Assembly: GCA_046050355.1 (NCBI GenBank)
Contig: JBJOPW010000015.1
Coordinates: 1-21,900 of the forward strand
Length of the DNA: 21,900 bases
Source: Candidatus Parcubacteria bacterium
Lineage (GTDB): Bacteria > Patescibacteriota > Minisyncoccia > Phycocordibacterales > UBA918
Direction: 5' to 3'
The notes under the pieces were generated by a model. That model saw only the letters and a list, made by a program, of their open reading frames with translations, had not been told where the DNA came from and made no database searches. A program made the position numbers and the translations under genes. Shown piece after piece: positions 355-20,678 of this stretch; positions within the stretch are counted from its first letter, which is position 1, and each line of letters begins with the position of its first letter.

Positions 355-666
355 ATGAAAATCAGAAAAGGAGACACCGTCAAGGTGATTGCCGGAAAAG
401 ATAAAGGTAAGACCGGTACCATCCTCATGACCATGAAGGACATGAACCAGGTGGTTATTGAAGGAATCAATGTAGCGACCAAGCACCAGAAGAGTAAGCG
501 CGTGCGCTCACAGGGACAGATTATTGAAAAGAGTATGCCAATCGACGCGTCAAACGTTGCTTTGATGGAAGGGGACAAGACTGTCCGCGTTGGCTACACC
601 TTTGAAGGCGAGGGCGACAAGCGCAAGAAGGTTCGTGTTGCTCGCCCCAGTGGTAAGAAAATCTAA
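355..666 (+). CDS. rplX: 50S ribosomal protein L24
   Basis: KOW motif MKIRKGDTVKVIAGKDKGK, PIDASNV; follows rplN. Confidence 0.98.
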   Translation: MKIRKGDTVKVIAGKDKGKTGTILMTMKDMNQVVIEGINVATKHQKSKRVRSQGQIIEKSMPIDASNVALMEGDKTVRVGYTFEGEGDKRKKVRVARPSGKKI

Positions 667-668
667 GT

Positions 669-1208
669 ATGGAAACTACCAAAACCAAACTCGCTTCGGC
701 CTACGAAGCCCTCAAAGGTACTTTCGGGTACAAGAACGTCATGGAGACACCAAAGATCGAAAAGATTGTGGTGTCAGTGGGTACTGGTCGCGTACAAGAT
801 AAACATCGTGAAGCCGTGATTGTTGATCGTCTTTCGCTCATTACCGGGCAAAAGCCATCACCACGTCCCGCGAAGCAATCGATTGCCTCATTTAAGCTCC
901 GTGAAGGCGAAATCATCGGTCACCAGGTAACCATTCGTGGCGCCCGCATGATGCACTTCATCGACAAGCTCATTCACATTGCTATCCCGCAGACTCGCGA
1001 TTTCCGCGGACTGAAGGCTACTGCGATTGATGAGATGGGGAACATTACCATTGGTATCAAAGATAGTACTATCTTCCCAGAATGTGCTGACGATGAACTC
1101 AAGGATGCTTTCTCATTTGCGGTGACTATCGTCACCACAGCGAAGTCGAAGGCAGAAGCTGAGGCTTTCCTCCGTCACATTAACTTGCCACTCCAAAAAG
1201 CTGAATAA
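669..1208 (+). CDS. rplE: 50S ribosomal protein L5
   Basis: PKIEKIVV, ITGQKP, SIASFKLREG, RDFRGL. Confidence 0.98.
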   Translation: METTKTKLASAYEALKGTFGYKNVMETPKIEKIVVSVGTGRVQDKHREAVIVDRLSLITGQKPSPRPAKQSIASFKLREGEIIGHQVTIRGARMMHFIDKLIHIAIPQTRDFRGLKATAIDEMGNITIGIKDSTIFPECADDELKDAFSFAVTIVTTAKSKAEAEAFLRHINLPLQKAE

Positions 1209-1226
1209 GCTCGACAGAGAGTAAGA

Positions 1227-1272
1227 CAAAAAGCAGCAAAACCGGCCTATAGGTCGGTTTGTTGCTTTTTTG
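1227..1272. terminator. Bidirectional intrinsic terminator after rplE
   Basis: caaaaagcagcaaaaccggcct / aggtcggtttgttgcttttttg inverted repeat with A- and T-tracts. Confidence 0.8.
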
Positions 1273-1375
1273 TATCAACCTTTGGGAGCAAACCCCTCGC
1301 CTTGAGGCGAGGGTGGTTCAGTAGAAAAGGTGAAAGGCGGCGACCCGTTTATGGGTCGCCGCCTTGCGAGGTGCC

Positions 1376-2038
1376 TCATTCGGCCGCAGTGCTAGGAGGC
1401 TGATGAAGCTTAATGACCTCGTTTGGGTTGGTTTGTTCGATCGTGTTGTAAGCAGCCATCAGGCGGCTTAGCACCTTATCGAAATCCTCGACCGTTGGGA
1501 TCAGCGACTGTCCGACAGTGGCCTGTTTGACGATCTCGATTATTGCGTCTTGGAGTTTCAATTCAGGTAGCAAACGAGCCAGCGCAGTTTCGAGCCGTGC
1601 CTGTCGCTGGCTAACTAGCTCGGCGGCTGGTAGCAAGGCCTCACCGAGGTCGAGGCTGGTTCGATAGGCAGCATGCCCGGAACCAAATCGCCCTAGCACT
1701 TCCCCGATACTTTCTGTTACCGCCATGTAGACATCGAACTGCAGTTCGTTGAGGAGTTCACGTTCTGTCCACTGTCGGCGCTGGCCCATGAGGCAAAACG
1801 CCAGTGCTGAGCTCATCGTCACAAAGAGAAGTAGGATAGCTGCACCAGCGAAGTAGAATACTGGTGGCATGGTCGGCCAGCCGTATTCACTCCAGAGTAT
1901 GGCCATGGTCCCGCCAATGAAACACCAGGACAAGCTGAGGCACCAAAGCCACAGCGTAACCCACTGCTTTTGTCGCCGGAGCAGCAACTGCTCATGTCTG
2001 AACGTCGTGGCGTGGTCTTCGCCAATCTTATTTTTCAC
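1376..2038 (-). CDS. Hypothetical membrane protein (2 TM segments plus helical domain) inserted in the spc cluster
   Basis: 220-aa ORF, GTG start with GGAGGT SD (2043-2048), two hydrophobic stretches, GC hairpins downstream (1291-1318, 1334-1365). Confidence 0.8.
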   Translation of the reverse strand: MKNKIGEDHATTFRHEQLLLRRQKQWVTLWLWCLSLSWCFIGGTMAILWSEYGWPTMPPVFYFAGAAILLLFVTMSSALAFCLMGQRRQWTERELLNELQFDVYMAVTESIGEVLGRFGSGHAAYRTSLDLGEALLPAAELVSQRQARLETALARLLPELKLQDAIIEIVKQATVGQSLIPTVEDFDKVLSRLMAAYNTIEQTNPNEVIKLHQPPSTAAE

Positions 2039-2074
2039 GACAACCTCCGATGCTAAGTTGAACGACCTACAAAT

Positions 2075-2102
2075 AGCCTACGCTATCCATCTAAAACTGC
2101 AA
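2075..2102 (-). promoter_or_regulatory. Putative promoter of the inserted gene
   Basis: TTGCAG-16 nt-TAGGCT on the minus strand. Confidence 0.45.
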
Positions 2103-2333: not shown

Positions 2334-2519
2334 GTGGCACGAACATCAGTAAAGGTGCGAGCTACTCGCACCCCGAAGTATGCTTCACGCGTCGTCCGAC
2401 GCTGCAAGCTCTGTGGCCGCAAGCACGGATACATGCGCGATTTCGACATTTGTCGTATCTGCTTCCGTGAATTGGTTCACGAAGGACATATACCAGGTAT
2501 AAAGAAATCATCATGGTAG
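2334..2519 (+). CDS. rpsN: 30S ribosomal protein S14, zinc-binding short type (RpsZ type)
   Basis: 61 aa, CKLCGR...CRICFRE, IPGIKKSSW; GTG start. Confidence 0.97.
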   Translation: MARTSVKVRATRTPKYASRVVRRCKLCGRKHGYMRDFDICRICFRELVHEGHIPGIKKSSW

Positions 2520-2905
2520 GCGATACAATTGGCGATTTCATTATCCGTCTCAAAAATGCGGGCGTAGTTGGTCACAAGACCGTTTCTGCACCGTATTCCA
2601 AGCTTCGTCACGCTATTGCAGACAAGCTCGTTGAGGCAGGATATATTGAAGCGGCTGTAGCCAAAGGAAAAGCAGCCGAAAAGACACTTGAAGTAACACT
2701 TAAGTATGAGGATGGCGCACACCGAATTAACGGTGTTAAGCGTATTAGTAAGCCGGGACGCCGTTTATACGTAAAGGTCGAATCTATTCACCCTGTTAAG
2801 TTCGGAAAGGGACATCTCATTCTCTCGACACCAGCTGGTATCCTCACAAACGTTGAGGCCAAAGCAAAAAATGTCGGGGGTGAGCAGCTCTTCCTCATTT
2901 GGTAA
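2513..2905 (+). CDS. rpsH: 30S ribosomal protein S8
   Basis: DTIGDFIIRLKN, RISKPGRRLY, ILSTPAG, NVGGE. Confidence 0.98.
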   Translation: MVGDTIGDFIIRLKNAGVVGHKTVSAPYSKLRHAIADKLVEAGYIEAAVAKGKAAEKTLEVTLKYEDGAHRINGVKRISKPGRRLYVKVESIHPVKFGKGHLILSTPAGILTNVEAKAKNVGGEQLFLIW

Positions 2906-2906
2906 T

Positions 2907-3437
2907 ATGAGTCGTTTAGGAAAATTACCAGTAGCAATTCCTGCTGGTGTCGAGGTAACTCTCGTAGATGGAAGTATTACCATCAAAGGTCCAAAAGGGA
3001 CATTGATGCGACCGCTTCGTAATGATGTAACAATCACGGTTGAAGGTAGCGAAATCAAGCTTGCTCCAGGCAAGACTGAACTTGCGCCAGCACTTTGGGG
3101 TACCTACGCTGCTCATATTCGCAATATGATCAAAGGAGTTACCGAAGGGTTCACCAAGATTCTTGATATCGAAGGGGTGGGGTACCGCGCTGAAGTAAAG
3201 GGAACTGATTTGGTGCTGAACATGGGTTATTCTCATCCAGTGCCACTAGCCATTCCCGCTGGTATCACCGCAACGGTAGAAAAAACAGCCATTACGCTTG
3301 TGAGTCACGACCTTGAACTACTTGGTCAATTCGCAGCAAACGTGCGTAAGGTACGCAAACCAGAGCCATATAAAGGTAAAGGTATTCGCTACCGTGGTGA
3401 ATTTATTATCCGCAAGCAAGGTAAGAAGGCTGTCTAG
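2907..3437 (+). CDS. rplF: 50S ribosomal protein L6
   Basis: True start ATG 2907 (MSRLGKLPVAIP); KGPKG, GVGYRA, RKPEPYKGKGIRY. Confidence 0.98.
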   Translation: MSRLGKLPVAIPAGVEVTLVDGSITIKGPKGTLMRPLRNDVTITVEGSEIKLAPGKTELAPALWGTYAAHIRNMIKGVTEGFTKILDIEGVGYRAEVKGTDLVLNMGYSHPVPLAIPAGITATVEKTAITLVSHDLELLGQFAANVRKVRKPEPYKGKGIRYRGEFIIRKQGKKAV

Positions 3438-3446
3438 CCCACACGT

Positions 3447-3794
3447 ATGGAAAAAACACAAGCAAAACATGCGAAGCGTGCGGTTCGACACAACCGCATC
3501 CGCGCTAAGGTAACCGGCACCACTGACCGTCCTCGCCTCGCCATCTTTAAGAGTAATCGCTTTGTCTACGCGCAGCTCATCGATGATACAAAAGGTGTCA
3601 CGGTGGCAGCAGCTGACTCACGTGCGTTTAAAGGAACAATGACGGAAGGAGCGGTAGCAGTTGGCGCTGATATCGCCAAGAAAGCAACCGCGAAAGGGGT
3701 AACTGCAGTGGTATTTGACCGCGGCGGTTTTAAGTACCAGGGACTCATTGCGGCACTCGCTGATAGTGCGCGCAGTAACGGACTTACGTTCTAG
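3447..3794 (+). CDS. rplR: 50S ribosomal protein L18
   Basis: RPRLAIFKSN, YAQLIDD, VVFDRGGFKY. Confidence 0.98.
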   Translation: MEKTQAKHAKRAVRHNRIRAKVTGTTDRPRLAIFKSNRFVYAQLIDDTKGVTVAAADSRAFKGTMTEGAVAVGADIAKKATAKGVTAVVFDRGGFKYQGLIAALADSARSNGLTF

Positions 3795-3820
3795 AGGTTT
3801 ATTCTATTAAGATAGTAATT

Positions 3821-4450
3821 ATGTCAGAGCAGGAAGCTACAACTGTAGTAGATACTACTACAGACAACGCGACACCAAGTGTGCCAGCGACCGATGCACC
3901 CGCTAGTGACGCTGCGCCAGTAGATGGTCGTCGTCCTCGCCGCGGTGGTCGTGATGGAAATCGTGGGGATCGTCGTCCTCGCCGCGGGGGCAGTGCTCGT
4001 CCGGAGCGTGTTCGCCCAGAGTTTGATCAAAAAATCATCAGTATCCGTCGTGTAACCCGTGTGATGGCTGGTGGTCGTCGTTTCAGTTTCTCAGTGGCTA
4101 TGGTCGTGGGAGACAAGAAGGGCAAGGTTGGTGTTGGTATCGGCAAGGCCGGCGACACCCAACTTGCTATTGATAAGGCAGTCCGTGATGCGAAGAAGCA
4201 TATGATTGTCGTACCAATGAACAAGGATAGTCACATTCCCCATGATGTGCACACTAAATATGCATCAAGTGAGGTAATGATTATGCCTGCGCCAGGTCGT
4301 GGGTTGGTAGCCGGTTCATCAGTTCGTACCGTGCTTGAAATGGCCGGAGTGAAGGATGTTACTGCCAAAATTTTCTCACGTAGTAAAAACAAGCTTAACA
4401 ATGCTCGCGCTGCTGTCGAAGCGCTCAAGCTCCTAAAGAAGTCAAACTAG
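3821..4450 (+). CDS. rpsE: 30S ribosomal protein S5 with N-terminal extension
   Basis: IRRVTRVMAGGRRFSF, VGDKKGKVGVG, PAPGRGLVAG. Confidence 0.98.
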   Translation: MSEQEATTVVDTTTDNATPSVPATDAPASDAAPVDGRRPRRGGRDGNRGDRRPRRGGSARPERVRPEFDQKIISIRRVTRVMAGGRRFSFSVAMVVGDKKGKVGVGIGKAGDTQLAIDKAVRDAKKHMIVVPMNKDSHIPHDVHTKYASSEVMIMPAPGRGLVAGSSVRTVLEMAGVKDVTAKIFSRSKNKLNNARAAVEALKLLKKSN

Positions 4451-4451
4451 T

Positions 4452-4901
4452 ATGCAGCTTCATGAATTAAAGCCAGCTACCATTAAAAAAGCGGCCAAAC
4501 GAATTGGTCGTGGCGGTAAGCGTGGTAAGACCTCAGGCCGTGGTGGGAAGGGGCAGACTGCCCGCGCTGGTAACAGTATGCGTCCAGAAATGCGTGACTT
4601 CATCAAGAAGTTGCCAAAGCTTCGTGGTCACGGTGTGAACCGCGCTGCGACAGTCAACGCTGAGCGCGTTCGTCCAATGCCAGTCAATGTTGGTGCACTT
4701 GAACTCGCCTTCAAGGCCGGGGACACAGTTACTCCAAAGGCGCTCGTGGCAGCCGGTGTGGTAGAAACTATCCGCAAGAAGGCCCCAACGGTAAAGATCT
4801 TGGCTACCGGTGAACTCACCAAGTCACTCACTATCGAAGGGTGTGAGGTATCAGCGACTGCCAAAGCAAAAATCGAAAAAGCTGGCGGAAAGGTGCTTTA
4901 A
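4452..4901 (+). CDS. rplO: 50S ribosomal protein L15
   Basis: RIGRGGKRGKTSGRGGKGQTAR, LPKLRG, KIEKAGG. Confidence 0.97.
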   Translation: MQLHELKPATIKKAAKRIGRGGKRGKTSGRGGKGQTARAGNSMRPEMRDFIKKLPKLRGHGVNRAATVNAERVRPMPVNVGALELAFKAGDTVTPKALVAAGVVETIRKKAPTVKILATGELTKSLTIEGCEVSATAKAKIEKAGGKVL

Positions 4902-4919
4902 TCGGTAGAATAGTGCTAT

Positions 4920-6197
4920 ATGCAAACATTCTTCCGAAAACTAAAAACCGTCTTCACCGACAAAACTATCCGTAACCGAGTACTGTTTGTCCTCGGCGCA
5001 CTGGTGGTCTTTCGTCTGTTGGCGGCCGTTCCGATTCCAGGAGTAGATCAGGCAGTATTGCAGCAATTTTTTGCGAACAATCAATTCCTTGGTCTCCTTA
5101 ACATCTTCTCTGGTGGTGGTCTCTCAAATCTCTCGATCGTGATGCTTGGTGTTGGTCCGTTTATTACCGCGTCGATCATTCTTCAGCTCATGACCGTGAT
5201 GTCACCCAAGATGAAAAGTCTCTACACCGAAGAAGGGGAAGCCGGACGGGCAAAATTTACGCAGTATACACGTATGCTCTCATTGCCGCTGGCGATTCTA
5301 CAAGCATTTGGTTTCCTCACGTTGCTTGAGAGTCAGGGAGTCATCAACCATTTGAGTTTCTTTGATTTTGCTCTCAACGTTATCCTGGTGGTGGCTGGTG
5401 CCGTACTCCTCATGTGGCTCGGTGAACTCGTGACCGAATATGGTATCGGCAACGGTGTGTCTATCATCATCTTTGCGGGTATTATGGCTGGTTTGCCTGC
5501 TACTATTAGTCAACTGGTGTTCAACTTCAATGCTGCACAATTGCCACTCTATATTGGCTTTGCGTTCTTGGCGATTGGCATCATCTATGCAGTAGTGGTC
5601 ATGACAGAAGCAGAGCGAGTAGTGCCGATTACCCACGCCAAACAAAGTCGTGGTAACCTGATGTTGACCACTCGTGGTAATAATTCGTATTTGCCACTTC
5701 GTCTCAATCAGGCTGGTGTGATTCCAATCATCTTTGCGCTCTCGATTCTCTTATTCCCGCAGATGGTCCTCAATATCCTGGGCGCGTTTAACCTCCCGTG
5801 GGTAGCGAGTGCTAATGCAGCCATTGCGAGCTTCATGAACGACTACATCCTCTATGGGGCGGTCTACTTTGTTCTCGTATTCCTCTTCACCTTCTTCTAC
5901 ACGGCGGTAACCTTTGATCCTGAAGCAATCGCAAAGAACCTCCAACGAAGCGGTTCATTTATCCCGGGTATTCGTCCTGGGGACCATACCGCCGAGTATC
6001 TCGGTAACTTGATTACTCGTCTTACCTTGGTTGGTGCGCTCTTCCTTGCGGTGATAGCGGTACTGCCGATTGCTCTTCAAGTAGCGACCGGTATTGCGGC
6101 TCTCGCCATTGGTGGGACAGCGATTCTGATTGTGGTTAACGTAGTCCTTGACCTCATTCGCCGCCTCGACGCCCAGGTGTCGCTACGTGAGTACTAA
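4920..6197 (+). CDS. secY: Preprotein translocase subunit SecY
   Basis: LGVGPFITASII, GIGNGVSIIIFAGI, AGVIPIIFA, FIPGIRPG; multiple TM segments. Confidence 0.99.
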   Translation: MQTFFRKLKTVFTDKTIRNRVLFVLGALVVFRLLAAVPIPGVDQAVLQQFFANNQFLGLLNIFSGGGLSNLSIVMLGVGPFITASIILQLMTVMSPKMKSLYTEEGEAGRAKFTQYTRMLSLPLAILQAFGFLTLLESQGVINHLSFFDFALNVILVVAGAVLLMWLGELVTEYGIGNGVSIIIFAGIMAGLPATISQLVFNFNAAQLPLYIGFAFLAIGIIYAVVVMTEAERVVPITHAKQSRGNLMLTTRGNNSYLPLRLNQAGVIPIIFALSILLFPQMVLNILGAFNLPWVASANAAIASFMNDYILYGAVYFVLVFLFTFFYTAVTFDPEAIAKNLQRSGSFIPGIRPGDHTAEYLGNLITRLTLVGALFLAVIAVLPIALQVATGIAALAIGGTAILIVVNVVLDLIRRLDAQVSLREY

Positions 6198-6408: not shown

Positions 6409-6561
6409 TTACCCTTGCGGGAAGGTGATCTCGACGGGTTCGTCTGGTAACAGATTCTTCCAGGCCCACTGTATACCGAGGCCAAGGACAATGACGAAAC
6501 ATGCTGCCATGACCCATTCGATGCTGATGTTTCCATCCTCCGATTTTAGCAACTTGCGCAT
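6409..6561 (-). CDS. Small Flp/TadE-like prepilin (50 aa; not in ORF track)
   Basis: Hand translation MRKLLKSEDG|NISIEWVMAACFVIVLGLGIQWAWKNLLPDEPVEITFPQG; GGAGGAG SD at 6566-6572; hairpin 6372-6395 downstream. Confidence 0.7.
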   Translation of the reverse strand: MRKLLKSEDGNISIEWVMAACFVIVLGLGIQWAWKNLLPDEPVEITFPQG

Positions 6562-6661
6562 CAGGCTCCTCCATGGTTGACGCTACTGGACGCCATCTAA
6601 CCATAGTGAAACCAAGAAATCAACAATGGCTATCCATGTTTACGTTTTTGTGTTAGTAGAG

Positions 6662-7294
6662 TTAGTACTGATTCTTGAAAGAATAGCCCGCCGGAATCGC
6701 ACTCCGTTCCTGCTTCCAGACCTCTGTTTCAAGCCAACGACGGTAGGTATCGTAGACGACGAGCGCTACGGTTTGTGGTGAGTGCCGTGAGGTATCGATA
6801 ATAAGGTCAAAATGAGCTAGGTCGTACGGATCGACATGGTAAAGCTCGCGGAAGCGCGATCGTTCCTCTTCCATACGACGACGCACCTGCTTCGTTACCT
6901 CAGAGAGGGAACTAATCCCTTCGCCGGCCTGGCTGCGGTTGGCGTTACTGACGGCGTCTTTGTAGATACGGACGGTCGCAACTTCGATATCGAGGTCAAG
7001 GTACACTTTGAAGGACTCTGGGATCCAGTAGAAGCCGAGGCGTGAATCGACTACAATATCCTTTTTGGTCCGGAGTGCGCGCAGACGGTCATCAACCGCA
7101 TCATCGAGCGCATGGTCGCTCTTGGCTCGTTCATTATACTCAGCGAGGGACATCCCTTTGTCGGCGAGGATTTGGCGCACCATATCACCGGAGGAGTGGC
7201 GGGTGTACCCAAGGAGCTCCGCCACGATATCTGCGGTCGACGACTTACCGCTGCCGGGTTTGCCCGAAATAGTGATAATGTGCTGCCGTTTCAT
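6662..7294 (-). CDS. cmk: Cytidylate kinase (short, archaeal-like family)
   Basis: Start ATG 7294 (MKRQHIITISGKPGSGKST P-loop), VVDSRLGFYW, FKVYL, DLIIDTS. Confidence 0.85.
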   Translation of the reverse strand: MKRQHIITISGKPGSGKSSTADIVAELLGYTRHSSGDMVRQILADKGMSLAEYNERAKSDHALDDAVDDRLRALRTKKDIVVDSRLGFYWIPESFKVYLDLDIEVATVRIYKDAVSNANRSQAGEGISSLSEVTKQVRRRMEEERSRFRELYHVDPYDLAHFDLIIDTSRHSPQTVALVVYDTYRRWLETEVWKQERSAIPAGYSFKNQY

Positions 7295-7362
7295 GCGCGT
7301 AGTATAGCATGTTGGCTTTGGACAATGTTGCATCTCATTTCAAAAATTGCTACCGTACATGC

Positions 7363-7935
7363 ATGCAATACGAGACTAAATATCAGAGCATCGTCTTAAT
7401 GGGTAAAATTTGTTCCGGGAAAGGCACTCAGGCCCACTACATTTTAGAAAACTTTGGTGGCACACTGTACTCAAACGGTAACAAAGTCCGTGAGACAGCA
7501 GCTCAACCAACCGTGTTTGGTCAGAAGATGAAAGAAATGTATGAGAGCGGACGCTTGATTCCCGAGTGGATTGCTTCATACTGGATGACGCACGCTCTAG
7601 TCTCTCAATACGAAAAAGACCGAGTGATATTTGAAGCTGTCGCCAAAAAGCCCGACGAAGCTGAGTTATTTCACGAAATACACGAATGGGTAAATCGTCC
7701 CTACATTGTCTTTAACCTCGACATTAGTGATGAACAGGTACATGAACGAAGTGAAAAGCGGGCTCGCGATATCGTCGACTCACCCAAGTCAGTTGATAAA
7801 CGTCTCGAAGAGTACCGTACTTACACCGCCAAATCGATTGAATTTTTTCGGTCACAAGGTACGCTGATTGATATTGATGGAACACAGGCACCTGAGGTCG
7901 TGCGGGAACACATTTTTAATGTACTCAAGGGGTAG
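7363..7935 (+). CDS. Adenylate kinase-family NMP kinase, divergent paralog
   Basis: Start ATG 7363; GKICSGKGTQA P-loop, GRLIP, KRLEEY, IDGT; DGFPR motif replaced by EAVAK. Confidence 0.85.
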   Translation: MQYETKYQSIVLMGKICSGKGTQAHYILENFGGTLYSNGNKVRETAAQPTVFGQKMKEMYESGRLIPEWIASYWMTHALVSQYEKDRVIFEAVAKKPDEAELFHEIHEWVNRPYIVFNLDISDEQVHERSEKRARDIVDSPKSVDKRLEEYRTYTAKSIEFFRSQGTLIDIDGTQAPEVVREHIFNVLKG

Positions 7936-7981
7936 TTTCTTGCCTTAATCAAATAAGTCGCTACACTGTACCAGTATGGAT

Positions 7982-8058
7982 CCCGTTAGAAATCGGGTAT
8001 AATACACTTTATTATTCAGATCAGTTGCTTATAGTAAGTAACTCTAATTTCTAACGGG
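7982..8058. mobile_element. 77-bp MITE-like element, copy 1
   Basis: Inverted ends cccgttagaaat/atttctaacggg; flanked by direct repeat ATGGAT (7976-7981, 8059-8064). Confidence 0.7.
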
Positions 8059-8652
8059 ATGGATATCAAAACAGTCATTTTTATTGGCCCACAGGGAAGT
8101 GGTAAGGGAACCCAGATTGAAAAGCTGAAAGGTGTACTCGAAGCTCGTGATCGTCGGCGGGTAGTAGACATTCAGACCGGTCGTCGCTTCCGTGCTCTCG
8201 CTGCGACCCAAGAAACCTTTGCCGAAGATAAAATCGCTGCGACACTTAATAGTGGCATCTTGCAGCCAGACTTTATTACGACCGTGCTGTGGGGGCGGGC
8301 CATGCTTGATCAGCTTGACGACAAGAGCCATCTCCTTATTGACGGTTTTCCCCGCACTGTGGGACAGATTCCTGACCTTGACGATGCATTTAGATTCTTT
8401 GATCGTACCAGTATCGATGTGGTTAATCTCGCCACTCCAGAGGAAGTAGTCCGCGCGCGCATGGAAAGTCGAGCAAGACAAGATGACACGAGCGATTCTA
8501 TCGAAGAACGACTTCGCTGGTACCGCGAAGAGACACTCCCGGTTATCGAATACTATCGCACTCGTCCTATTGCCCGTGTTCATGATATCGACGGTACGCT
8601 GTCGATTGACGAGGTACATACCGCTATTGTGACGGCTCTCGCCCTCGACTAA
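8059..8652 (+). CDS. adk: Adenylate kinase-family NMP kinase (short LID)
   Basis: GPQGSGKGTQ, LLIDGFPRT, RARQDD, RLRWY; immediately upstream of map. Confidence 0.88.
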   Translation: MDIKTVIFIGPQGSGKGTQIEKLKGVLEARDRRRVVDIQTGRRFRALAATQETFAEDKIAATLNSGILQPDFITTVLWGRAMLDQLDDKSHLLIDGFPRTVGQIPDLDDAFRFFDRTSIDVVNLATPEEVVRARMESRARQDDTSDSIEERLRWYREETLPVIEYYRTRPIARVHDIDGTLSIDEVHTAIVTALALD

Positions 8653-8675
8653 CCACCTGCTACAGTAAACAAAAA

Positions 8676-8709
8676 CAAAAAACCTTTCTGTTAACAGAAA
8701 GGTTTTTTG
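8676..8709. terminator. Terminator after adk
   Basis: Perfect palindrome caaaaaacctttctgtt|aacagaaaggttttttg. Confidence 0.8.
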
Positions 8710-12757: not shown

Positions 12758-12878
12758 GAAATGGCAAAACGAGCGAATTACTTTGTCGCACTACGTCGTT
12801 AAACATTCACTGGATTTGTTATCCCATTCATGTTCAACTCCTTGTGCTTCTCGTACTTCATCTCGTTTTGCCATTCCC
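12757..12878. mobile_element. About 120-bp long-hairpin MITE-like element
   Basis: 14-bp perfect inverted ends aatggcaaaacgag (12760-12773)/ctcgttttgccatt (12862-12875) with continued internal pairing. Confidence 0.5.
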
Positions 12879-12910
12879 TTCAACCTGATCAGTAAGTGAT
12901 AATTTATTTT

Positions 12911-13300
12911 ATGGAAATACCTTTTACTTTAGTTACTACCGGCGTCCTCGCCCTCATCTTTTTTACTCATAGTTTACGGACTATCAATGCACGGCGGGAC
13001 ACGAAGACCAACCTCGGCGATGGTGGTAATGACATCATGCTGCGCCGTATCCGTACCCACGGCAACTTTGCTGAGTATGTACCGTTCCTTATGTTCATAT
13101 TATTCCTCCTTGAAACACAGGGTGTGCCTGTGCTGTTCCTCGGCGCATTTGCTCTCGCGGTAGTCCTCGGGCGACTCCTTCACGCCTACGGCCTCTACTC
13201 GCCAGCGACACCAGGGGTGGCCCGTGTCCTCGGGATGCAGCTGACTCTCTGGCCACTGATTCTCGGTGGGATGTACCTCATCTACCTCGGCTTATTCTAA
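12911..13300 (+). CDS. MAPEG family membrane protein
   Basis: LGDGG, RRIRTHGNFAEYVP, LLE, GRLLHAYG. Confidence 0.93.
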   Translation: MEIPFTLVTTGVLALIFFTHSLRTINARRDTKTNLGDGGNDIMLRRIRTHGNFAEYVPFLMFILFLLETQGVPVLFLGAFALAVVLGRLLHAYGLYSPATPGVARVLGMQLTLWPLILGGMYLIYLGLF

Positions 13301-13306
13301 GACCAA

Positions 13307-13340
13307 CAAAAGACCGACGCCCTTGGGCGTCGGTCTTTTG
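13307..13340. terminator. Bidirectional terminator between MAPEG and rplT
   Basis: caaaagaccgacgccc tt gggcgtcggtcttttg between convergent genes. Confidence 0.9.
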
Positions 13341-13355
13341 TAACGAAGTGAGTAG

Positions 13356-13703
13356 TTATTTGGTAACCATCTCGACTACTCGTTTGAATGCATCTGGGCG
13401 GTCTTTGGCGAGGGTTGCCAGGATCTTGCGGTCGATCTTGATACCTTTTACTTCCATAGTGTGGATGAAAGTACTGTACTTGAATCCAAGAGCTCGGAGA
13501 GCCGCATTGATGCGAACTGTCCAGAGACGACGGAAGTCGTTCTTCTTGTCTTTGCGGTGAGCGAAAGCGTGGAGTTGAGCGTGGTAGATCGCTTCTTTAG
13601 CGACGCGCTTCTTCTTTGAGCGCTGGAGTCGGTACCCCTTTACTTCAGCGAGGATATTGCGGCGGCGCTTTTGGGCCATGAGGCCTCCCTTTACACGTGA
13701 CAT
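13356..13703 (-). CDS. rplT: 50S ribosomal protein L20
   Basis: MSRVKGG, FRRLWTVRINAA, YSTFI, IDRKILA. Confidence 0.98.
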   Translation of the reverse strand: MSRVKGGLMAQKRRRNILAEVKGYRLQRSKKKRVAKEAIYHAQLHAFAHRKDKKNDFRRLWTVRINAALRALGFKYSTFIHTMEVKGIKIDRKILATLAKDRPDAFKRVVEMVTK

Positions 13704-13711
13704 ATGAAGGT

Positions 13712-13939
13712 TTATTTAGCGGCAGAGCCGTTAGTTTCTGCTAATGGCTTGGCACCCATCCCTGGCAGGAAGCGGCGACTGAGACGCTTACTGAAGTTCA
13801 GGAGCTGTGTTCGCTTGCGGCGAAGGCGCTGCTGACCAGTCTGGCGAGCGTTGAAGTGATTCTGACCAATTTTGCGAGCCACCACCTTTCCGTTTTTGGT
13901 GACTTTGACACGCTTGGTGAAAGATTTGTTGGTTTTCAT
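13712..13939 (-). CDS. rpmI: 50S ribosomal protein L35
   Basis: MKTNKSFTKRVKVTKNGK, HFN; lies between infC and rplT. Confidence 0.93.
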   Translation of the reverse strand: MKTNKSFTKRVKVTKNGKVVARKIGQNHFNARQTGQQRLRRKRTQLLNFSKRLSRRFLPGMGAKPLAETNGSAAK

Positions 13940-14107
13940 ACCAGTGCAGTTAGATGGGTAATTAAAGTTGCTAAAGCTTGTGATAATCAGACGGAAATGT
14001 GAAGCGTCTCAATATCCCAAAGCTCTAGAATGTTGATCGGGTTGCCAAAAGGGGATCTGGCAAGGTGGCAGAAATATACCGTATTTCGGTCAATTAATCA
14101 AGTTCAG

Positions 14108-14205
14108 CCCGTTAGAGTTTTTTATTGAGTATGTAGCGATTTTGGCCCATATGGGCAGCGCACGTTTATTTAGGCTTTGCAGTAGAGTATTAAAACTCTA
14201 ACGGG
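14108..14205. mobile_element. 98-bp MITE-like element, copy 2 of the CCCGTTAGA family
   Basis: Inverted ends cccgttagagtttt/aaaactctaacggg; abuts the infC stop codon. Confidence 0.65.
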
Positions 14206-14871
14206 CTAAATCAACCCACTTTCAAGGAGCGTATCAAGATCTTTCTTTTTGTTCTTCTGTGGGGCAGCGGGAGCTTTTTTCTCTTCAATCACGGGCTTCG
14301 CTGCATCTTTGAGCTTTTGGACTTTGGTGCCCGGCATGCGTTCGAGGGTAGTGGTGTAGCCCTTTGGACTTTTCTTCATTTCGTCCGCAATTTTGTATTC
14401 AGTCGGGATGATTTTAAGGAAACGATCAAGACGCTCTTTGAGGAAGGCAGCTTCCATAAACTTGTAGCGGCCCCAGAGGAAGAGGTCAACTTTCACGCGG
14501 TGTCCTTCTTCGAGCCATTCTGCGACCCGACTCGCCTTAAGGAGCTGATCGTTTTCACCGGTACCGATTTTTACCTGGACACTCTTGGTCTCAGTGACAT
14601 GGGACTTGGCCCGCATCTCACTTTCTTTTTGACCAGTATCGTAGCGGTACTTACCGTAGTCGATGATTTTCGCTACTGGCGGCTTGGCGTTTGGGCTAAT
14701 CTCAATAAGGTCAAGATTGAGTTCATCGGCCTTCGCGAGCGCGTCAGCGAGCGATAGGAGACCGAAGTTTTCGCCCTCGGGACCAACCACGCGTAACTCT
14801 TTTGCCTTGATGGCATGATTAATACGAGTCTTTACTTTTGGGGTGTACGCGTCCTTTGATTGGTTTTGCAA
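14206..14871 (-). CDS. infC: Translation initiation factor IF-3
   Basis: RINHAI, LDLIEISPNAKPPVAKIIDYGKYRY, GHRVKV; probable TTG start. Confidence 0.97.
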   Translation of the reverse strand: MQNQSKDAYTPKVKTRINHAIKAKELRVVGPEGENFGLLSLADALAKADELNLDLIEISPNAKPPVAKIIDYGKYRYDTGQKESEMRAKSHVTETKSVQVKIGTGENDQLLKASRVAEWLEEGHRVKVDLFLWGRYKFMEAAFLKERLDRFLKIIPTEYKIADEMKKSPKGYTTTLERMPGTKVQKLKDAAKPVIEEKKAPAAPQKNKKKDLDTLLESGLI

Positions 14872-15111: not shown

Positions 15112-15126
15112 AGACTCTCTGTAGCT

Positions 15127-15161
15127 CAAAGCCCGCCTTGCGCAAGCAACGGCGGGTTTTG
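15127..15161 (+). terminator. Attenuator-like terminator
   Basis: aaagcccgcc-ttgc GCAA gcaa-c-ggcgggtttt, upstream of ORF 15187. Confidence 0.65.
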
Positions 15162-15186
15162 TGTCGGCTAGGAAAAGGAGTACATC

Positions 15187-15489
15187 ATGCCGAAAGAAAA
15201 GCAGTTCTTTGTGAGTAGCGAGTGTGGTGGCGAGGCCGTGTGGTCGCTCCACAACCCGGTGCAACCCGAGTACGACCACTGGGGATGGGCCAACATCTTG
15301 CCCTGTGGCCGAGTGGAGTTCATTCGGCAGATGACACCCGCCGAAATCACCTTTATCAGGCAGCGGTACATGGTTTGGGGAGACAAACTGTCTAAGCAAC
15401 CGTGGGCCCGCGTCGTCGGCTACGAAGGCGGATCGAGTATTGGTGTCAACGCCATCAACTGCGACCCGACCGGCGGAGTGGGGGTGTAA
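15187..15489 (+). CDS. Hypothetical protein (100 aa)
   Basis: ATG with AAGGAG SD (15175-15180); followed by terminator. Confidence 0.7.
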   Translation: MPKEKQFFVSSECGGEAVWSLHNPVQPEYDHWGWANILPCGRVEFIRQMTPAEITFIRQRYMVWGDKLSKQPWARVVGYEGGSSIGVNAINCDPTGGVGV

Positions 15490-15543: not shown

Positions 15544-17004
15544 TTACAAAAGCCAGTCTGCAGCTAGACGCATATGCGCGTCGTACGTGTCTCTAGACAT
15601 GTTTTCAAGTAAACGTGGCATCATGGAGAGACGGGGATTCTTTAAAAAGACCGTTTTATGAGTCGCAATAAAGTGCCAGTAGAGAGCGGTCCATGTTGCC
15701 TCCCAGTCACCCTTCGGGTAGTTGCTCATCTTCTTTATATACGATGCGCCGCTGATATAGGGCTTGGTGGCAAAGCTGCCACCATCGGCAAATTGGCTCA
15801 TGCCATAGACGTTTGGCACCATCACCCAATCATAGGCATCAATGTACATCCCCATGAACCACCGGTAAGCCTCGTCTGGATGTGTGCCCGAGAGAAGCAT
15901 GAGGTTTCCAGCGACCATGAGCCGCTCGATATGGTGCGTGTATCCAAATTGGAGTGCTCGAGAGATTGTAGTATCAAGGGGCAGTATGCCCGTGGTACCC
16001 TCCCACCAACGAGCAGGCAGTGTACGGGTGTGTCCAAAAAAGTTCTTGGTACGCATGGTGCGGCCATCGACCTCGTAGCTGGCGCGAATAAATTCGCGCC
16101 AGCCGATAATTTGCCGGATAAAGCCTTCAAGTGAAGCGATAGGTACGTCGTGTTGCTTTGTATACACGAGCGTGGTGTCGACTACCTGGCGGGGAGTAAG
16201 GAGTCCGATATTGAGAAGTGGCGACAGTACCGAGTGGAATAGTTTGGTGTGTTCGGTTGTCATCGAGTCTTCGTACGGACCAAATGCTGCCAACCGCTCG
16301 ACCAAAAAGTCTGCCAAGTATTCCGTCGCTCCCCCGTGTGTGATTGGTAGGTACCAGGCGGCCTCACCGTATTGTTCGGCTGGCACACGCTTAGCCCAGG
16401 CCACTGCCGCGCCGTACGCTTCCGTCGGCGGATACGGCGTGATGTCCTCGGGTAGGGGGAGTGACTTCGGGAGCTTCTGGCGATTCTCGCTATCAAAGCT
16501 CCACGCACCACCAACCGGTTCGTCTCCGTCCATGAGGATGCCGGTATCTTGGCGCAGCTTTTTGTAGAAGTTCGCCATGAAGCGGCGACTCTTTACAAAT
16601 CGTTCTTTGGCCTCGGCTTTGGGCAAGAGAAAGAGCGGCGACTCGTACCAGGTGCGGGTAAAGCCGTGAGTGGCGCACGCAGTACTAATAGCTTGTTCGA
16701 GGTAATCATCGGTGGTATCGCAAATATGCAGTGTCTGTACCCCATCTTTGGCGATGCGTTTAAAGATCTCTTCAGTAGTCGGGTGTTCGAGTAGTTCAAT
16801 GTAGTGGACAGTAAAGCCAGCCTCTAAGAGCGCCTGTCGGTAGGCCTGCATGGTGAGGCGATGGAGGATGAGCTTCGCCCGGTGGATGGGATTGTGGGTA
16901 AGGAGGAGCGGTTCTTCAATCAGGTACAATGCACGACCTGGGGTAAGGGCAGGGTGATGTGGGATAGCAAATAGCTGATTCGGGTAAATGAGGGTGGCTT
17001 CCAT
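15544..17004 (-). CDS. Cryptochrome/photolyase family protein, bacterial (6-4) photolyase-like, without Fe-S cysteines
   Basis: Start 17004 (MEATLIYPNQLF); GGAWSFDSENR, FGPYED, EGFIRQIIGWREF, YTHHIERLM, DAYDWVMVPNVYGM, TKPYISG. Confidence 0.93.
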   Translation of the reverse strand: MEATLIYPNQLFAIPHHPALTPGRALYLIEEPLLLTHNPIHRAKLILHRLTMQAYRQALLEAGFTVHYIELLEHPTTEEIFKRIAKDGVQTLHICDTTDDYLEQAISTACATHGFTRTWYESPLFLLPKAEAKERFVKSRRFMANFYKKLRQDTGILMDGDEPVGGAWSFDSENRQKLPKSLPLPEDITPYPPTEAYGAAVAWAKRVPAEQYGEAAWYLPITHGGATEYLADFLVERLAAFGPYEDSMTTEHTKLFHSVLSPLLNIGLLTPRQVVDTTLVYTKQHDVPIASLEGFIRQIIGWREFIRASYEVDGRTMRTKNFFGHTRTLPARWWEGTTGILPLDTTISRALQFGYTHHIERLMVAGNLMLLSGTHPDEAYRWFMGMYIDAYDWVMVPNVYGMSQFADGGSFATKPYISGASYIKKMSNYPKGDWEATWTALYWHFIATHKTVFLKNPRLSMMPRLLENMSRDTYDAHMRLAADWLL

Positions 17005-17094
17005 ACGTGTACCGTGAGTATAGCAAACAATCAAAATTAGAGACAAAAGAAAAGCGCGCCACGGGGGGCGCGCCTCAGTCTTAGGGTTCAGGCT

Positions 17095-17295: not shown

Positions 17296-17524
17296 TTTGA
17301 GCATCCTTTTCTAGGCGGTTTCAGTTTATCGGGGTGTTACCCGACGGTTCTTAGAAAGCAGTGCCCGCAGGCCGTCTGCTTCATGCCTGGTGCTGTCCCT
17401 GTGGCAGCGAGGCATCTAATTACTCTATACCTACCTTAGAGGGTGTCAAGACGCTCCACCGTGATACTTGTGTCTAACTCATTTTTGTGGCATGATACCG
17501 CTCCGCCCAAAAAGGAGAATACCG

Positions 17525-17692
17525 GTGACTGCAGCACAAAAACAAACAACCTTTGCCATGCTCTTGGACAGGACCTCTATCGGAGATACGTTTCAGTGGG
17601 AAGGTGAGTATCACCTGGTGCTGATGGCCGATGATGGTCGACGGTTCACTGTTGTGGTGGCGTATGGCTACCCGCGTAAGCAGGCAGCGTAA
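17525..17692 (+). CDS. Hypothetical protein (55 aa)
   Basis: GTG start with AAGGAG SD (17512-17517); MTAAQKQTTFAMLLDRTSIGDTFQWEG... Confidence 0.65.
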   Translation: MTAAQKQTTFAMLLDRTSIGDTFQWEGEYHLVLMADDGRRFTVVVAYGYPRKQAA

Positions 17693-17769
17693 AGCCAAAG
17701 ACAGCGAGGGGTGGCGAGCGGTCAGGTTCCGCTAGTACCCCTCGCCGTTATAAGGAGAAAACGATAGAC

Positions 17770-18093
17770 ATGAAGATTGTTTTTGATCGGATTCCTCTTG
17801 TATGGGAAGAATCGCTCAAAACTTTGGTGGACGTTTCGATTCGGCAACACGTGGCTGAGCACCATAACGTCTGCCGGACAGTGATCGTGAGACCATATCC
17901 TGCCACTCTGACCATCAATGGCCAACAGTTTCCGCCAGGGACAGGTGTTACGTTGCGGGCAGAGACAGATCATGGACAGATGACGTTTGGTGCTGTGTAT
18001 ACAGAAGACCATTGGCAACTCATTCCAGTCCTTAATACAAAGTGGCCACGGCGTAGACGTGGTACCAATAACGCAGGCTCCGGACTACGATGA
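17770..18093 (+). CDS. Hypothetical protein (107 aa)
   Basis: TAAGGAG at 17751-17757; hairpin plus T-tract at the 3' end. Confidence 0.65.
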   Translation: MKIVFDRIPLVWEESLKTLVDVSIRQHVAEHHNVCRTVIVRPYPATLTINGQQFPPGTGVTLRAETDHGQMTFGAVYTEDHWQLIPVLNTKWPRRRRGTNNAGSGLR

Positions 18094-18331: not shown

Positions 18332-19006
18332 TCATCCAATACAGAGACTAGTATCAACCTTATGGAAGATGGTATCCAAAATCTTTGCCAATGCCGCGTC
18401 ATCATGGACACTGTAGGTTGTGCCGCTGTTGGCCACCATACTATTGGTGAGGTACTGGCCTACCACATCTGTCTTGTTTGTTTCGATTCCGACCTTATAG
18501 AGCACTGTGTCAGGGGGTGGTTGTGTCAGCACGACTCTTCCGGCTTGGTCAGTGATAAAGACGATAGCTGAAGCTGACCACTCAACTTCGTTAATCACCG
18601 CCAGCGCCTTATTCCAGCCCACCTGGTGGTTGGTGCCAATCAGGTTGGTGCGGGAAAGCTCAGCTCTGAGCTTGTCGAGGAACTCCACTCTCTCTCCTTC
18701 TTGATCAAGATCGACCCATTCTGGTCCTCGAGCGGTATCACCCCACATGATATATCCGATAGAGAGCGATGCGCAGCGCTTGAGGTAGTTGTTGACAGCT
18801 GCGCTGATGGCGGCGGTTTGGATCGCCATGTGACTTGATGCCTGTTTGATTGCCGAAATGTGGGACAGATCGGTATGCATACTGTCACTGTGGTCGGCCA
18901 CAATGAGCAAAATCGACTGCACTTCTTTCGTATCGGCCCAAACGGCGTCGCTGCCAAAGACCAAAAAGATCAGTGGCAACATAGAGCGTTTGAAAAGTTT
19001 CAGCAT
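18332..19006 (-). CDS. Secreted von Willebrand factor A domain protein (DUF1194-like)
   Basis: Signal peptide (...AVWA|D), MIDAS DHSDS, GTN, IVFITD; AAGGAGGT SD at 19012-19019 favours ATG 19006 over GTG 19009. Confidence 0.8.
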   Translation of the reverse strand: MLKLFKRSMLPLIFLVFGSDAVWADTKEVQSILLIVADHSDSMHTDLSHISAIKQASSHMAIQTAAISAAVNNYLKRCASLSIGYIMWGDTARGPEWVDLDQEGERVEFLDKLRAELSRTNLIGTNHQVGWNKALAVINEVEWSASAIVFITDQAGRVVLTQPPPDTVLYKVGIETNKTDVVGQYLTNSMVANSGTTYSVHDDAALAKILDTIFHKVDTSLCIG

Positions 19007-19118
19007 CACTGACCTCCTTCAGGTTGTTGTTGCTCGGTACTCTACATACGGTACGCCTATTATCACGTAGTGTAAAGATCTCATGATGTATATGTGGAAA
19101 CTACTGCAAATAGCATTA

Positions 19119-19152
19119 CCGCCGCGACCTAGTGTGGCCGCGGCGGTGGGTG
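19119..19152. repeat. 34-bp palindromic direct repeat, copy 2
   Basis: Identical to 18291-18324; overlaps the stop codon of ORF 19129-19434. Confidence 0.95.
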
Positions 19153-19434
19153 ACGGTTGATGGTGTCGCCTGCTACCGTGATGAGGTCAGCACCAAAGTA
19201 GAATTTGAGATCAAGTTTCAACTTGATCAAGGTTTCTTCTGAACGAAACTCTGGCGGAACGAACGTAGAGTGCCATTCGCCGTTAGGCGAACAGTATCCG
19301 AAGATGGCAACACGTTGACCATCCGCGACTCCGATGAGCAACTCCCTTTCAATGTCATGTTGAGGACATCTTATAGCGACGATTTTTTCTGCCGTCAGAC
19401 AGATGGGTGCGGGTGTCGGCTGTTGGATGTTCAT
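19129..19434 (-). CDS. Hypothetical protein (101 aa)
   Basis: ATG preceded by AGGGAGGGA; TTTACA-16-TACGGT promoter upstream. Confidence 0.7.
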   Translation of the reverse strand: MNIQQPTPAPICLTAEKIVAIRCPQHDIERELLIGVADGQRVAIFGYCSPNGEWHSTFVPPEFRSEETLIKLKLDLKFYFGADLITVAGDTINRHPPPRPH

Positions 19435-19559
19435 GGTTTCCCTCCCTGTAACGTAGAGTCGTTTCTCATATTACCGTAGCAAAAATGGTGAAATTGTAAA
19501 TAGAGCAAAATATGCTACGATAAACATGAAATAAGTCTGGACTTTCAAGGAGTGGACTA

Positions 19560-19874
19560 ATGACACTTACCATCAACAGTGATCGTGTGCTGATCAATCA
19601 CGCTGGTCATGTTTGCGCTATGAGTGAAGAGATCACCAAAGCAATAAGTTGTTACAGTAAAATTGCCACAGCCACCATCACACGAAAAGATCTTTGTGGC
19701 AACGAGGTGCCCCGTATACCCCGCAGGGGAACGCTTTATGTGGTTACCTACACCAACCGAGATGGATCAAAAGTACGTCTACCAGAGCAACTTTTCTTTC
19801 GTATCGAAAAAAGTGTACTGCATGTACATAAAGTTCCAAAGGTCAAATCGCACACACCTGCCCCACATCGATGA
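19560..19874 (+). CDS. Hypothetical protein (104 aa)
   Basis: AAGGAG at 19547-19552; TTGTAA-16-TACGAT promoter at 19494-19521. Confidence 0.7.
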   Translation: MTLTINSDRVLINHAGHVCAMSEEITKAISCYSKIATATITRKDLCGNEVPRIPRRGTLYVVTYTNRDGSKVRLPEQLFFRIEKSVLHVHKVPKVKSHTPAPHR

Positions 19875-20296
19875 TGGGGAGCTTTATGTGTTGATCAGAG
19901 CCATCTACACAGTTTGATTGTCTAAACTAAAGCCCCTCGCATTGACCAAGTGCGAGGGGGAAGGGCACCGAACCCTTATATGGTGAAGCAGAACTCGGAC
20001 CGTTGCCGATAGGTTGACAGCTCTTCCGGTGTAGGGCTATGTCACAAGGACCAGATCAGGGCAAGTGAATGAATCACGTGACCGACCGGTCCTTGGGTCG
20101 GACTTACTCCACTTCAGTAGCCTACTACTAAAATAATAAAGGTCAAATATGAAACTTAAATTCTCATGATACCCATCACTCGACTGGGCGACTAGTTGAG
20201 GGATTTCTTTTGCAAAAATAACCAATTGTGATTCGCGATTGTATGAAAAACGGCCGAGGGGAACCCTCGGCCGTAGCTCATCAGAGCTGAGATCGA

Positions 20297-20524
20297 TTAG
20301 TCGCCAAGCACGTCGCTAATGATATGTCGGCAGCCCTGGCATCGACCGCCACAGTTGCATCCGAGCGCCTTCGTGATTTCCTTGACACTCTGTTCATAGC
20401 TCAGAACAGTTGGATGCTCATGCCTGCTGCGGGGTTCAAAGAACATGCGGACCCCCTTGAAGATCCGTCGCTCCCTCGTTTTGGCTGACGTGGCCATGGC
20501 GGGCTGTGTTGTTGTCATTGACAT
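20297..20524 (-). CDS. Hypothetical small Cys-cluster protein (75 aa)
   Basis: AGAGGA SD before ATG 20524; C-terminal GCNCGGRCQGC; hairpin acggccgaggg/ccctcggccgt downstream. Confidence 0.6.
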   Translation of the reverse strand: MSMTTTQPAMATSAKTRERRIFKGVRMFFEPRSRHEHPTVLSYEQSVKEITKALGCNCGGRCQGCRHIISDVLGD

Positions 20525-20678
20525 GCTAGTCCTCTTTCTTCTGCTTCTTTTCCGACTGTGTACCTGCACGGCCGGAACGCACGATAGTAACTGCGATGTG
20601 AGTCGCTGTCAATTGGGGGATAGTACAGTGTTTGTTTGGTAAGTCCGGAGCCATATCGTCGTCTGATATAGTACAGAT

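Follow-up and report, generated by a model that had tools for sequence, protein, structure and literature searches.

The 21,900-nucleotide stretch analysed here (the window) is an entire contig (JBJOPW010000015.1) of the assembly GCA_046050355.1 from a Candidatus Parcubacteria bacterium, and the subject of this analysis is the Shine-Dalgarno (SD) motif that precedes one class of its genes and is missing before the other. The assembly (G000 below) comprises 939,894 base pairs (bp) in 17 contigs and its completeness is rated at 99.97%; the organism is a member of the Patescibacteria, or candidate phyla radiation (CPR). The window contains native genes and ten small orphan open reading frames (ORFs), none of which matched a Pfam, PHROGs or PADLOC family above threshold (Table 1). 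A 4-mer SD core (GGAG, GAGG or AGGA) ending 4–12 nucleotides (nt) before the start was found at 10 of the 10 orphan starts and at 0 of the 22 core starts (Fisher p = 1.6e-8); one of these 22, position 24, is no true start, uL14 being truncated by the contig end. An earlier reading of the DNA letters alone (the sequence-only reading) had named these motifs, and all of them are present where it placed them, although those at 17770, 17295 and 20524 are weak and the ORF at 6409–6561 is doubtful. GGAGG is not overabundant in the window (29 occurrences against 34.9 expected); the signal is the position of the motif relative to ORF starts, not its abundance.

Table 1. Genes and start signals of the window (aa, amino acids; nt, nucleotides; SD, Shine-Dalgarno motif)
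Feature	Position	Strand	Start signal and remarks
uL14, uL24 (355-666), uL5 (669-1208)	3..1208	+	Native, Pfam; coding scores 25-49; starts 355 and 669 without SD
220-aa orphan with predicted membrane segments	1376..2038	-	Inserted antisense between uL5 and uS14
GGAGGT	2043-2048	-	4 nt before GTG 2038
uS14, uS8, uL6 (start 2907), uL18, uS5, uL15, SecY	2334..6197	+	Native, SD-less; from Pfam and upstream sequences
50-aa ORF (6409-6561), doubtful, with GGAGGAG (6566-6572)	6409..6572	-	Motif 4 nt before ATG 6561
Cytidylate-kinase-like protein (-), two adenylate kinases, MAP, NDK, membrane protein	Part of native block 6662..14871		Pfam; no SD
Beta-CASP metallo-beta-lactamase, MAPEG, bL20 (-), bL35 (-), IF3 (-)	Part of native block 6662..14871		Pfam; no SD
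Cassette: hairpin with T-run, AAGGAG (15175-15180), 100-aa orphan	15120..15489	+	Motif 6 nt before ATG 15187
Photolyase-related protein (DPRP)	15544..17046	-	Pfam; without SD
Small ORF, 66-69 aa	17095..17304	-	AAAGGA before 17295/17304; weak case
AAGGAG (17512-17517) and 55-aa orphan	17512..17692	+	Motif 7 nt before GTG 17525
AAGGAG (17752-17757) and 107-aa orphan	17752..18093	+	Motif 12 nt before ATG 17770; weak because of the 12-nt spacer
Small VWA-domain protein, secreted-type, 224 aa, DxSxS motif	18332..19019	-	AAGGAGGT (19012-19019) 5 nt before ATG 19006
101-aa orphan	19129..19447	-	AGGGAGGGA (19439-19447) 4 nt before ATG 19434
AAGGAG (19547-19552) and 104-aa orphan	19547..19874	+	Motif 7 nt before ATG 19560
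75-aa ORF	20297..20535	-	AGAGGA (20530-20535), weak motif; start 20524
RhuM-Fic protein	20679..21665	+	Pfam; SD-less; TATAGT ends 6 nt before ATG

The two start classes proposed in the sequence-only reading recur genome-wide. A hexamer coding model trained on G000 itself yielded 594 high-score genes, which are taken here as native. GGAGG was found 3–12 nt upstream of none of 590 native genes (5 and 5 at control offsets), and AGGAG, GGAGG or GAGGT upstream of 7 of the 590, against 13 and 11 at the control offsets. Alternative downstream starts of core genes showed no SD peak, and a 4-mer preceded 1 of 131 native genes with an unambiguous start; core genes are therefore SD-less whichever start is chosen. 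Genome-wide scoring of core against orphan genes, which that reading had called for, gave unequal frequencies: a 5-mer SD was observed before 3 of 568 genes with a homologue in the related closed genome G307 and before 12 of 282 without one (p = 2e-4). Native starts have features of their own. A TAnnnT box ends 6, 7, 8 or 9 nt before them in 51, 33, 48 and 52 cases, against about 14 elsewhere, T stands at position -1 in 63%, and G is depleted upstream (window examples at 8798–8812, 4905–4919 and 20664–20678). Several genes of the native block 6662..14871 have such a box 6–9 nt 5' of their ATG, and the native genes of G029, a genome of another family, show the same -10-like pattern. This box geometry suggests that many native mRNAs may be leaderless.

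Outside the high-score genes, the SD motif is placed before starts far more often than permuted motifs are. GGAGG was followed by an ORF-opening start in 28 of 438 cases against 42 of 1477 for permutations (p = 0.0012), and AGGAG in 35 of 505 against 114 of 3933 (p = 1.8e-5). The distances peak at 5–8 nt for GGAGG (18, 13, 7 and 13 cases against about 4) and at 6–7 nt for AGGAG (17 and 15), and the orphan class of G000 as a whole has its motif peaks 5–9 nt before the start, with the consensus AAGGAGG. In the peak windows, GGAGG was observed 51 times against 17.2 expected, and AGGAG 47 times against 16.8. Three further genomes, fetched for replication, were analysed in full; all four are kin and so are not independent. 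The nearest searched relative, G007, which shares 530 of the 594 genes at a median 87% amino acid (aa) identity, gave 36 against 11.7 for GGAGG and 31 against 15.0 for AGGAG. The closed genome G307 (1,087,875 bp, GC content 0.41, median 58% aa identity) gave 55 against 10.8 and 67 against 13.8, and G029 (535 kb) gave 17 against 6.3 and 25 against 9.5. High-score genes gave 0–10 in the same peak windows. In 111 kb around the IF3 gene of six close relatives, 0 of 83 native genes had the motif and the SD peaks were 7 and 7.

Could such a pattern arise from chance, from choosing ORFs by their motifs, or from mis-assembly? The starts in the sequence-only reading were picked by eye, and the list of SD-led ORFs contains false ones; the permutation and distance tests, which depend on no chosen start, are nevertheless positive, and the pattern is replicated in the closed genome. 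Assembly was checked against public sequencing runs, those with the stretch being labelled as freshwater metagenomes; no RNA run was listed for the locus. The junctions between native genes and orphans at 1293–2544 (Logan contig, run X1) and 14672–18320 are spanned with 0 differences and even depth by contigs of one run, possibly the source sample itself; contigs of run X4 cover 17675–18306, and IF3 and the 15187 ORF are found together, at about 90% identity, on a contig from a different study. In run X2, contig cover is scant or absent at 1668–2334 and 15008–18342, where the flanks are covered and no contig joins across. An artefact of this kind is, on balance, close to negligible as an explanation.

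What could read the motif? The ordinary partner of an SD is the CCUCC run (anti-SD) at the 3' end of 16S rRNA, which the sequence-only reading had proposed to inspect. It is absent. G000 has a single 16S gene, whose 3' tail is GGAUUAAUUCCAAU; after helix 45 the gene reads GGATTAATTCCAAT, and CCTCC was found neither within the gene (1459 nt) nor over the next 700 nt downstream. The two gene classes thus cannot differ by the strength of ordinary SD/anti-SD pairing. Among 31 relatives searched, 17 had a 16S match and 16 a readable tail (9 of the genus, 7 of other families of the order). The tails of the 9 genus members are identical to that of G000, and CCTCC was found in 0 of 18 same-order genomes read, namely these 16 and 2 more; the single 16S gene of G307, a further member of the genus, has the same tail, and the genome holding locus L030 likewise lacks CCTCC there. 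As a positive control, 18 tails from other orders of the class were chosen among the 103 of 151 genomes with a 16S match: 10 read GGATCACCTCCTTT, 7 had other tails and 1 was unreadable. The method therefore detects an anti-SD where one is present, and its loss here is old and clade-wide. No second 16S gene was found in G000 or G307. The only genomic occurrence of GATCACCTCC, a possible hidden anti-SD, sits within a high-score gene; of four conserved non-coding CCTCC stretches inspected, three were tRNAs and one was unexplained; a conserved non-coding RNA exposing a CCUCC was not found. Ribosomal protein uL1 (PF00687) was not found in G000, a search whose control was positive in 14 of 14 genomes. 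As a separate observation, the 23S gene (G000:C2:120216-124398) spans 4.18 kb against a model of 2925 positions and so contains insertions; the 16S gene lies elsewhere, on C5, and the two are unlinked.

A weak SD might still be formed by the tail that remains, with GGAG, the common core of the motifs, pairing to the UUCC retained throughout the genus (four pairs, one of them G-U). However, no peak was seen for GGAA or GGAAT, whose pairing with UUCC would be stronger, and the flanks prefer A at -1/-2 and G at +1, with T at +1 depleted, the opposite of what selection by this tail would give. The tail of G029 is GGATTAATTCAATG, without CC, and that genome still shows the peak. Residual pairing is thus largely refuted and is very improbable. 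The motif is not read by the resident 16S tail.

Although its canonical reader is missing, the motif has been kept. In the window, families whose members share 26–58% aa identity keep it at the homologous start. This is the case in 3 of 3 members of the 15187 family and 2 of 2 of the 17525 family, and, for the VWA family, in 4 of 5 loci from genomes and in 9 of the 10 metagenome loci that could be evaluated (6 of 7 distinct sequences). The homologues of the 15187 ORF at L027, L030 and L036 (58, 41 and 33% identical) lie at the same place and retain both the hairpin and GGAG or AAGGAG; the cassette is missing in G007. The 17525 ORF is 50% identical to a homologue in L028 (AGGGAGGG) and 44% identical to one in L027 (GGAGGG). 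Homologues of the 20524 ORF in L026, L027 and L042 are 31–50% identical and have GAGG in two cases, and the 17770 orphan has a 30% homologue in L028. On the genome scale, 22 SD-led ORFs of G000 have an N-terminally aligned homologue in G007 (median 53.5% aa identity), and GGAG or GAGG stands 4–11 nt before the start in 10 of these 22 homologues, compared with 13 of 317 other low-score ORFs (p = 1e-7) and 14 of 453 native genes (p = 6e-9). Four-fold degenerate sites are saturated between the two genomes, with 42.6% identical (30910/72598), so a neutral 4-mer would survive in about 3% of cases. Because the 16S tail of both genomes lacks CCUCC, this retention means that selection maintains the motif without a canonical reader.

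Purifying selection on the motif in a genus devoid of anti-SD argues that it is a working element rather than baggage. We therefore favour, at about even chances, the reading that these genomes have two start architectures and that the SD motif of the flexible genome is a selected working element of leadered mRNAs. Native genes would be leaderless or have short, G-poor leaders without an SD, which fits the order-wide loss of the CCUCC anti-SD. The flexible genome would consist of small, fast-evolving, lineage-restricted genes together with island cargo, inserted at hot spots as self-contained cassettes, each with its own promoter and a leader of perhaps 20–30 nt carrying a canonical-type SD, (A)AGGAGG, 5–8 nt before the start. 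Of this picture, the two gene classes, the spacing of the motif, the selection on it and the missing CCUCC are shown directly, and a role in translation, most likely in start-site selection or ribosome loading, is inferred. A further step, which we regard as tentative and on the whole doubtful, is that a protein or a different RNA takes the place of the 16S 3' tail in decoding the SD-type leader, so that the flexible genome has an initiation channel of its own. A four-domain S1 protein is present in G000.

A different function for the motif would be that of a regulatory site: a protein or small RNA would bind its GGA and repress or activate the mRNAs as a regulon, in the sense of the sequence-only reading, and the likeness to an SD would be secondary. 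The leaders of the VWA family (window 19012–19030 and homologues) fit this idea, with a conserved GACC...GGTC stem that encloses AAGGAGG and holds the GGA in its loop, and the constant spacing between motif and start would be compatible with a regulator of translation. Nothing alike was seen in the other families, and sets of 42 and 67 leaders anchored on the motif have no shared structure and no further conserved position. The gene for CsrA (PF02599) was not found in G000, most of the conserved CCTCC stretches turned out to be tRNAs (three of the four inspected), and consensus and spacing are exactly of SD type. We consider a purely regulatory site improbable. By eye, the leaders contain sigma-70-like promoters at variable distance; a promoter and terminator scan of 14–21.9 kb of the window returned promoters not above shuffled sequence. 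A promoter of an alternative sigma factor in place of the SD was also considered and rejected, no position upstream of the anchored motif being conserved.

Several observations weigh against a working SD in the flexible genome. Retention is incomplete, since 12 of the 22 homologues in G007 did not keep the motif, and turnover of the SD-led class is high: 4 of 59 such ORFs in G000 match G307, and 1 of 63 in the reverse comparison. Half of the sampled class keeps the anti-SD, so a pool of SD-using genes exists nearby. Searches of G000 returned no partner that would read the motif, and no mechanism is known to us that would allow GGAGG to be read where CCUCC is missing. Genes and starts were called with a purpose-built hexamer caller, and chance would account for about one-third of the SD-led ORFs listed, some being false, such as a site inside bL20.

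In an alternative account the motif would be inherited baggage: SD-led genes would have come from SD-using donors and would keep the donor SD for a while, unused. Such donors could be other bacteria, relatives of the same class that bear the anti-SD, or mobile elements cycling through them. Support comes from an island on contig C4 (G000:C4:13700-43300, L058-L060), which is integrated and of higher GC content. It encodes a serine recombinase and an arm-type tyrosine integrase, the latter with GGGAGG before its ATG, and a cargo of type III restriction, SNF2 with DUF4391, AbiEii, JAB/ThiF, B12-radical SAM and DUF3768 genes, several of which have GGAGG ahead of their starts. The best matches of the island among plasmids are to Acinetobacter (73%, type III restriction enzyme), Tritonibacter and Sinorhizobium (50%) and Sulfitobacter (43%). 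The SD-led imports among its genes are 43–50% identical to alphaproteobacterial plasmid genes, and part of the SD-led class is therefore plainly foreign. The island documents the transfer of genes from Proteobacteria into a CPR genome. The SD-led ORFs in general have low native coding scores, with higher GC content in G000, and are almost unshared with G307; the anti-SD is kept in 10 of the 18 sampled genomes of other orders, and the flanks of the motif fit a canonical anti-SD.

Against this stands the retention in 10 of 22 homologues, compared with about 4% in the controls, at a divergence where four-fold sites are saturated. The families of the window are, moreover, confined to the lineage and syntenic, and their identity falls in step with that of core genes: the 15187 family adjoins IF3 in four genomes, where IF3 is 91, 83 and 77% identical and the orphan 58, 41 and 33%. 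In G307, 14 of the 63 SD-led genes have native-like composition. For the VWA orphan, a word-indexed protein search returned only itself and a scan of viral contigs returned none; a metagenome search with a four-sequence alignment as query gave 11 loci with relatives, all on contigs of the lineage, with neighbours 62–92% identical to native genes of G000. The window orphans are of atypical composition and patchy among close relatives, with a match in 4 of 301 genomes of the order, and homologues in other lineages were not found by the word-indexed search or in viral contigs, order genomes or metagenomes. Baggage is accordingly an unlikely account of the class as a whole, though one to be taken seriously. 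The statement in the sequence-only reading that these genes do not look like simple fresh imports holds for the window ORFs, with their lineage-only families, sigma-70-like promoters and motifs retained in diverged homologues; some SD-led genes of the C4 island, elsewhere in the genome, are imports.

How does this arrangement compare with known systems? A study by Lim et al. from 2012 reportedly also dealt with organisms that have no anti-SD. Bacteroidetes, including Flavobacteria, are SD-poor and have a sequestered anti-SD, and their few SD-led genes are translated by ribosomes lacking bS21. G000 resembles them in combining a genome-wide SD-less mode with a small set of SD-led genes that might be under separate control, and differs in two respects: the anti-SD is intact and occluded in Bacteroidetes, whereas here it has been mutated away, and the SD-led set serves ribosomal-protein autoregulation there, whereas here it is the flexible genome. 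bS21 of G000 gave a sub-threshold match only (23.7 bits, the cut-off being 27).

A part of the Parcubacteria, overlapping a group that lacks uL1, has been reported to have lost the anti-SD (Tsurumaki et al., 2022, RNA 28:1041, PMC9297842); SD helices are thought not to form there, and the anti-SD detection rate was 48%. The genome described here agrees with that subgroup in having a 16S rRNA without CCUCCU, no uL1 found and uL30 missing from its usual place, and about half of the class sampled here lacks the motif, in line with their detection rate. Unlike that subgroup as described in the available part of the source, which reports no such set, it has a class of SD-led genes. In general, organisms that have no anti-SD have no recognisable SD either (Amin et al., 2018, PLoS One, PMC6107228). 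As in those organisms, genes here are not preceded by any enriched motif that would pair with the variant tail; in contrast to them, as far as that account describes them, a minority class here keeps a canonical SD under selection, a class that a whole-genome consensus search would miss. Leaderless-rich bacteria and gene finders with models for atypical genes have likewise been described (GeneMarkS-2, PMC6028130; Zheng et al., 2011, PMC3160421), and two features of the present genome are in line with them: the -10-like box a short and constant distance ahead of the ATG of native genes, and the separate, compositionally atypical class. The available parts of those descriptions do not mention atypical genes that keep an SD in a host without anti-SD, as the ones considered here do. 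Whereas anti-SD loss in part of the Parcubacteria, leaderless-rich bacteria and atypical-gene models are already known, a canonical SD kept under selection before the flexible genome of an anti-SD-less lineage was not found in the literature searched.

Loss of the anti-SD is usually equated with the end of the SD mechanism, and genome-wide surveys with a single motif agree. This lineage lost the reader long ago, about half of the class retaining it, and has the canonical SD at canonical spacing only before flexible genes. If the motif works, GGAGG would aid translation without CCUCC, which bears on the long debate over the purpose of the SD. If it is baggage, the flexible genome of these episymbiont-type bacteria would be in constant exchange with SD-using cells. 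Should the flexible genome have its own initiation channel, that channel could be controlled separately from the leaderless core, and across an entire order the classical SD signal would have persisted after the loss of its classical reader. For annotation, gene callers fitted with one start model per genome will mis-assign the starts of one class or the other in such genomes.

The SD-led ORFs are short (the median is 88 aa in G000 and 164 aa in G307, whereas that of native genes is 323 aa) and in G000 lie in gaps of higher GC content. Pfam searches with 20 of them gave three matches above the cut-off (B12-radical SAM, DUF3768 and NUDIX) and a fourth, weak match to VWA. The AlphaFold2 model of the VWA orphan (18332–19006) has a pLDDT of 90.1 and matches VWA folds at E of about 1e-7, and the family comprises 51 representative clusters at E<=1e-10. 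At least some SD-led genes are thus real, as the VWA fold and the NUDIX, radical SAM and DUF3768 members indicate. A bias towards secreted proteins was considered and rejected: a hydrophobic N-terminus was found in 8 of 59 SD-led ORFs in G000 and 23 of 63 in G307, compared with 192 of 594 native genes, which is no enrichment.

The uL5-uS14 spacer (window 1209–2333), within the ribosomal-protein operon, is an insertion hot spot whose content is unrelated between genomes. It measures 233 bp in G007 and about 0.3 kb in G004, 0.9 kb both in the window and in G010, and reaches 2.7 kb in G006 and 4.4 kb in G012. The orphan that it holds in the window has a native coding score of -8.6 and a GC content of 0.55 and is absent from G007. 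In G010 the spacer contains a cassette made up of a terminator, TTGACA-N17-TTTATAA, a leader and GGAGGT, followed after 3 nt by the ATG of a 109-aa ORF. The hairpin at 15120–15160, with its T-run, lies directly 5' of the SD of the 15187 ORF and is maintained in four genomes through compensatory substitutions; possible roles are those of a terminator, an attenuator or a recombination site. The relatives reached through IF3 are metagenome-assembled genomes labelled variously as Saccharibacteria, Kaiserbacteria, Parcubacteria, Paceibacteria or Patescibacteria.

The site inside bL20 is an in-frame internal ATG behind AGGGAGG (13679–13703), where the motif encodes Lys-Gly-Gly. It is conserved in G307 and was rejected as an SD-led start, being a false positive of the SD scan.

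No tRNA genes were found in the window, and Rfam gave sub-threshold matches only. Short sequences after secY (6195–6300) and after ndk (10555–10621) recur widely in G012, G004, G007 and G006; they resemble a small repeat of dispersed type, perhaps a terminator-like one, and the ORF at 6409–6561 shares its spacer with this repeat. In the ribosomal-protein operon, uL15 directly abuts uS5, uL30 being absent from its usual place between them, and uS5 has an N-terminal extension of about 67 aa before the Pfam domain (window 3821–4030), of low complexity with abundant Arg, Gly, Asp and Pro. At 6662–8652, three P-loop nucleotide kinases are consecutive, one cytidylate-kinase-like and two adenylate-kinase paralogues, one of the latter with a low native coding score (14.9). 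The RhuM-Fic protein matches the candidate defence family PDC-S23 (PADLOC, E=4e-107). In G307 (L084-L138), an identical stretch containing a 140-aa ORF is found at at least 10 places and is probably an insertion sequence.

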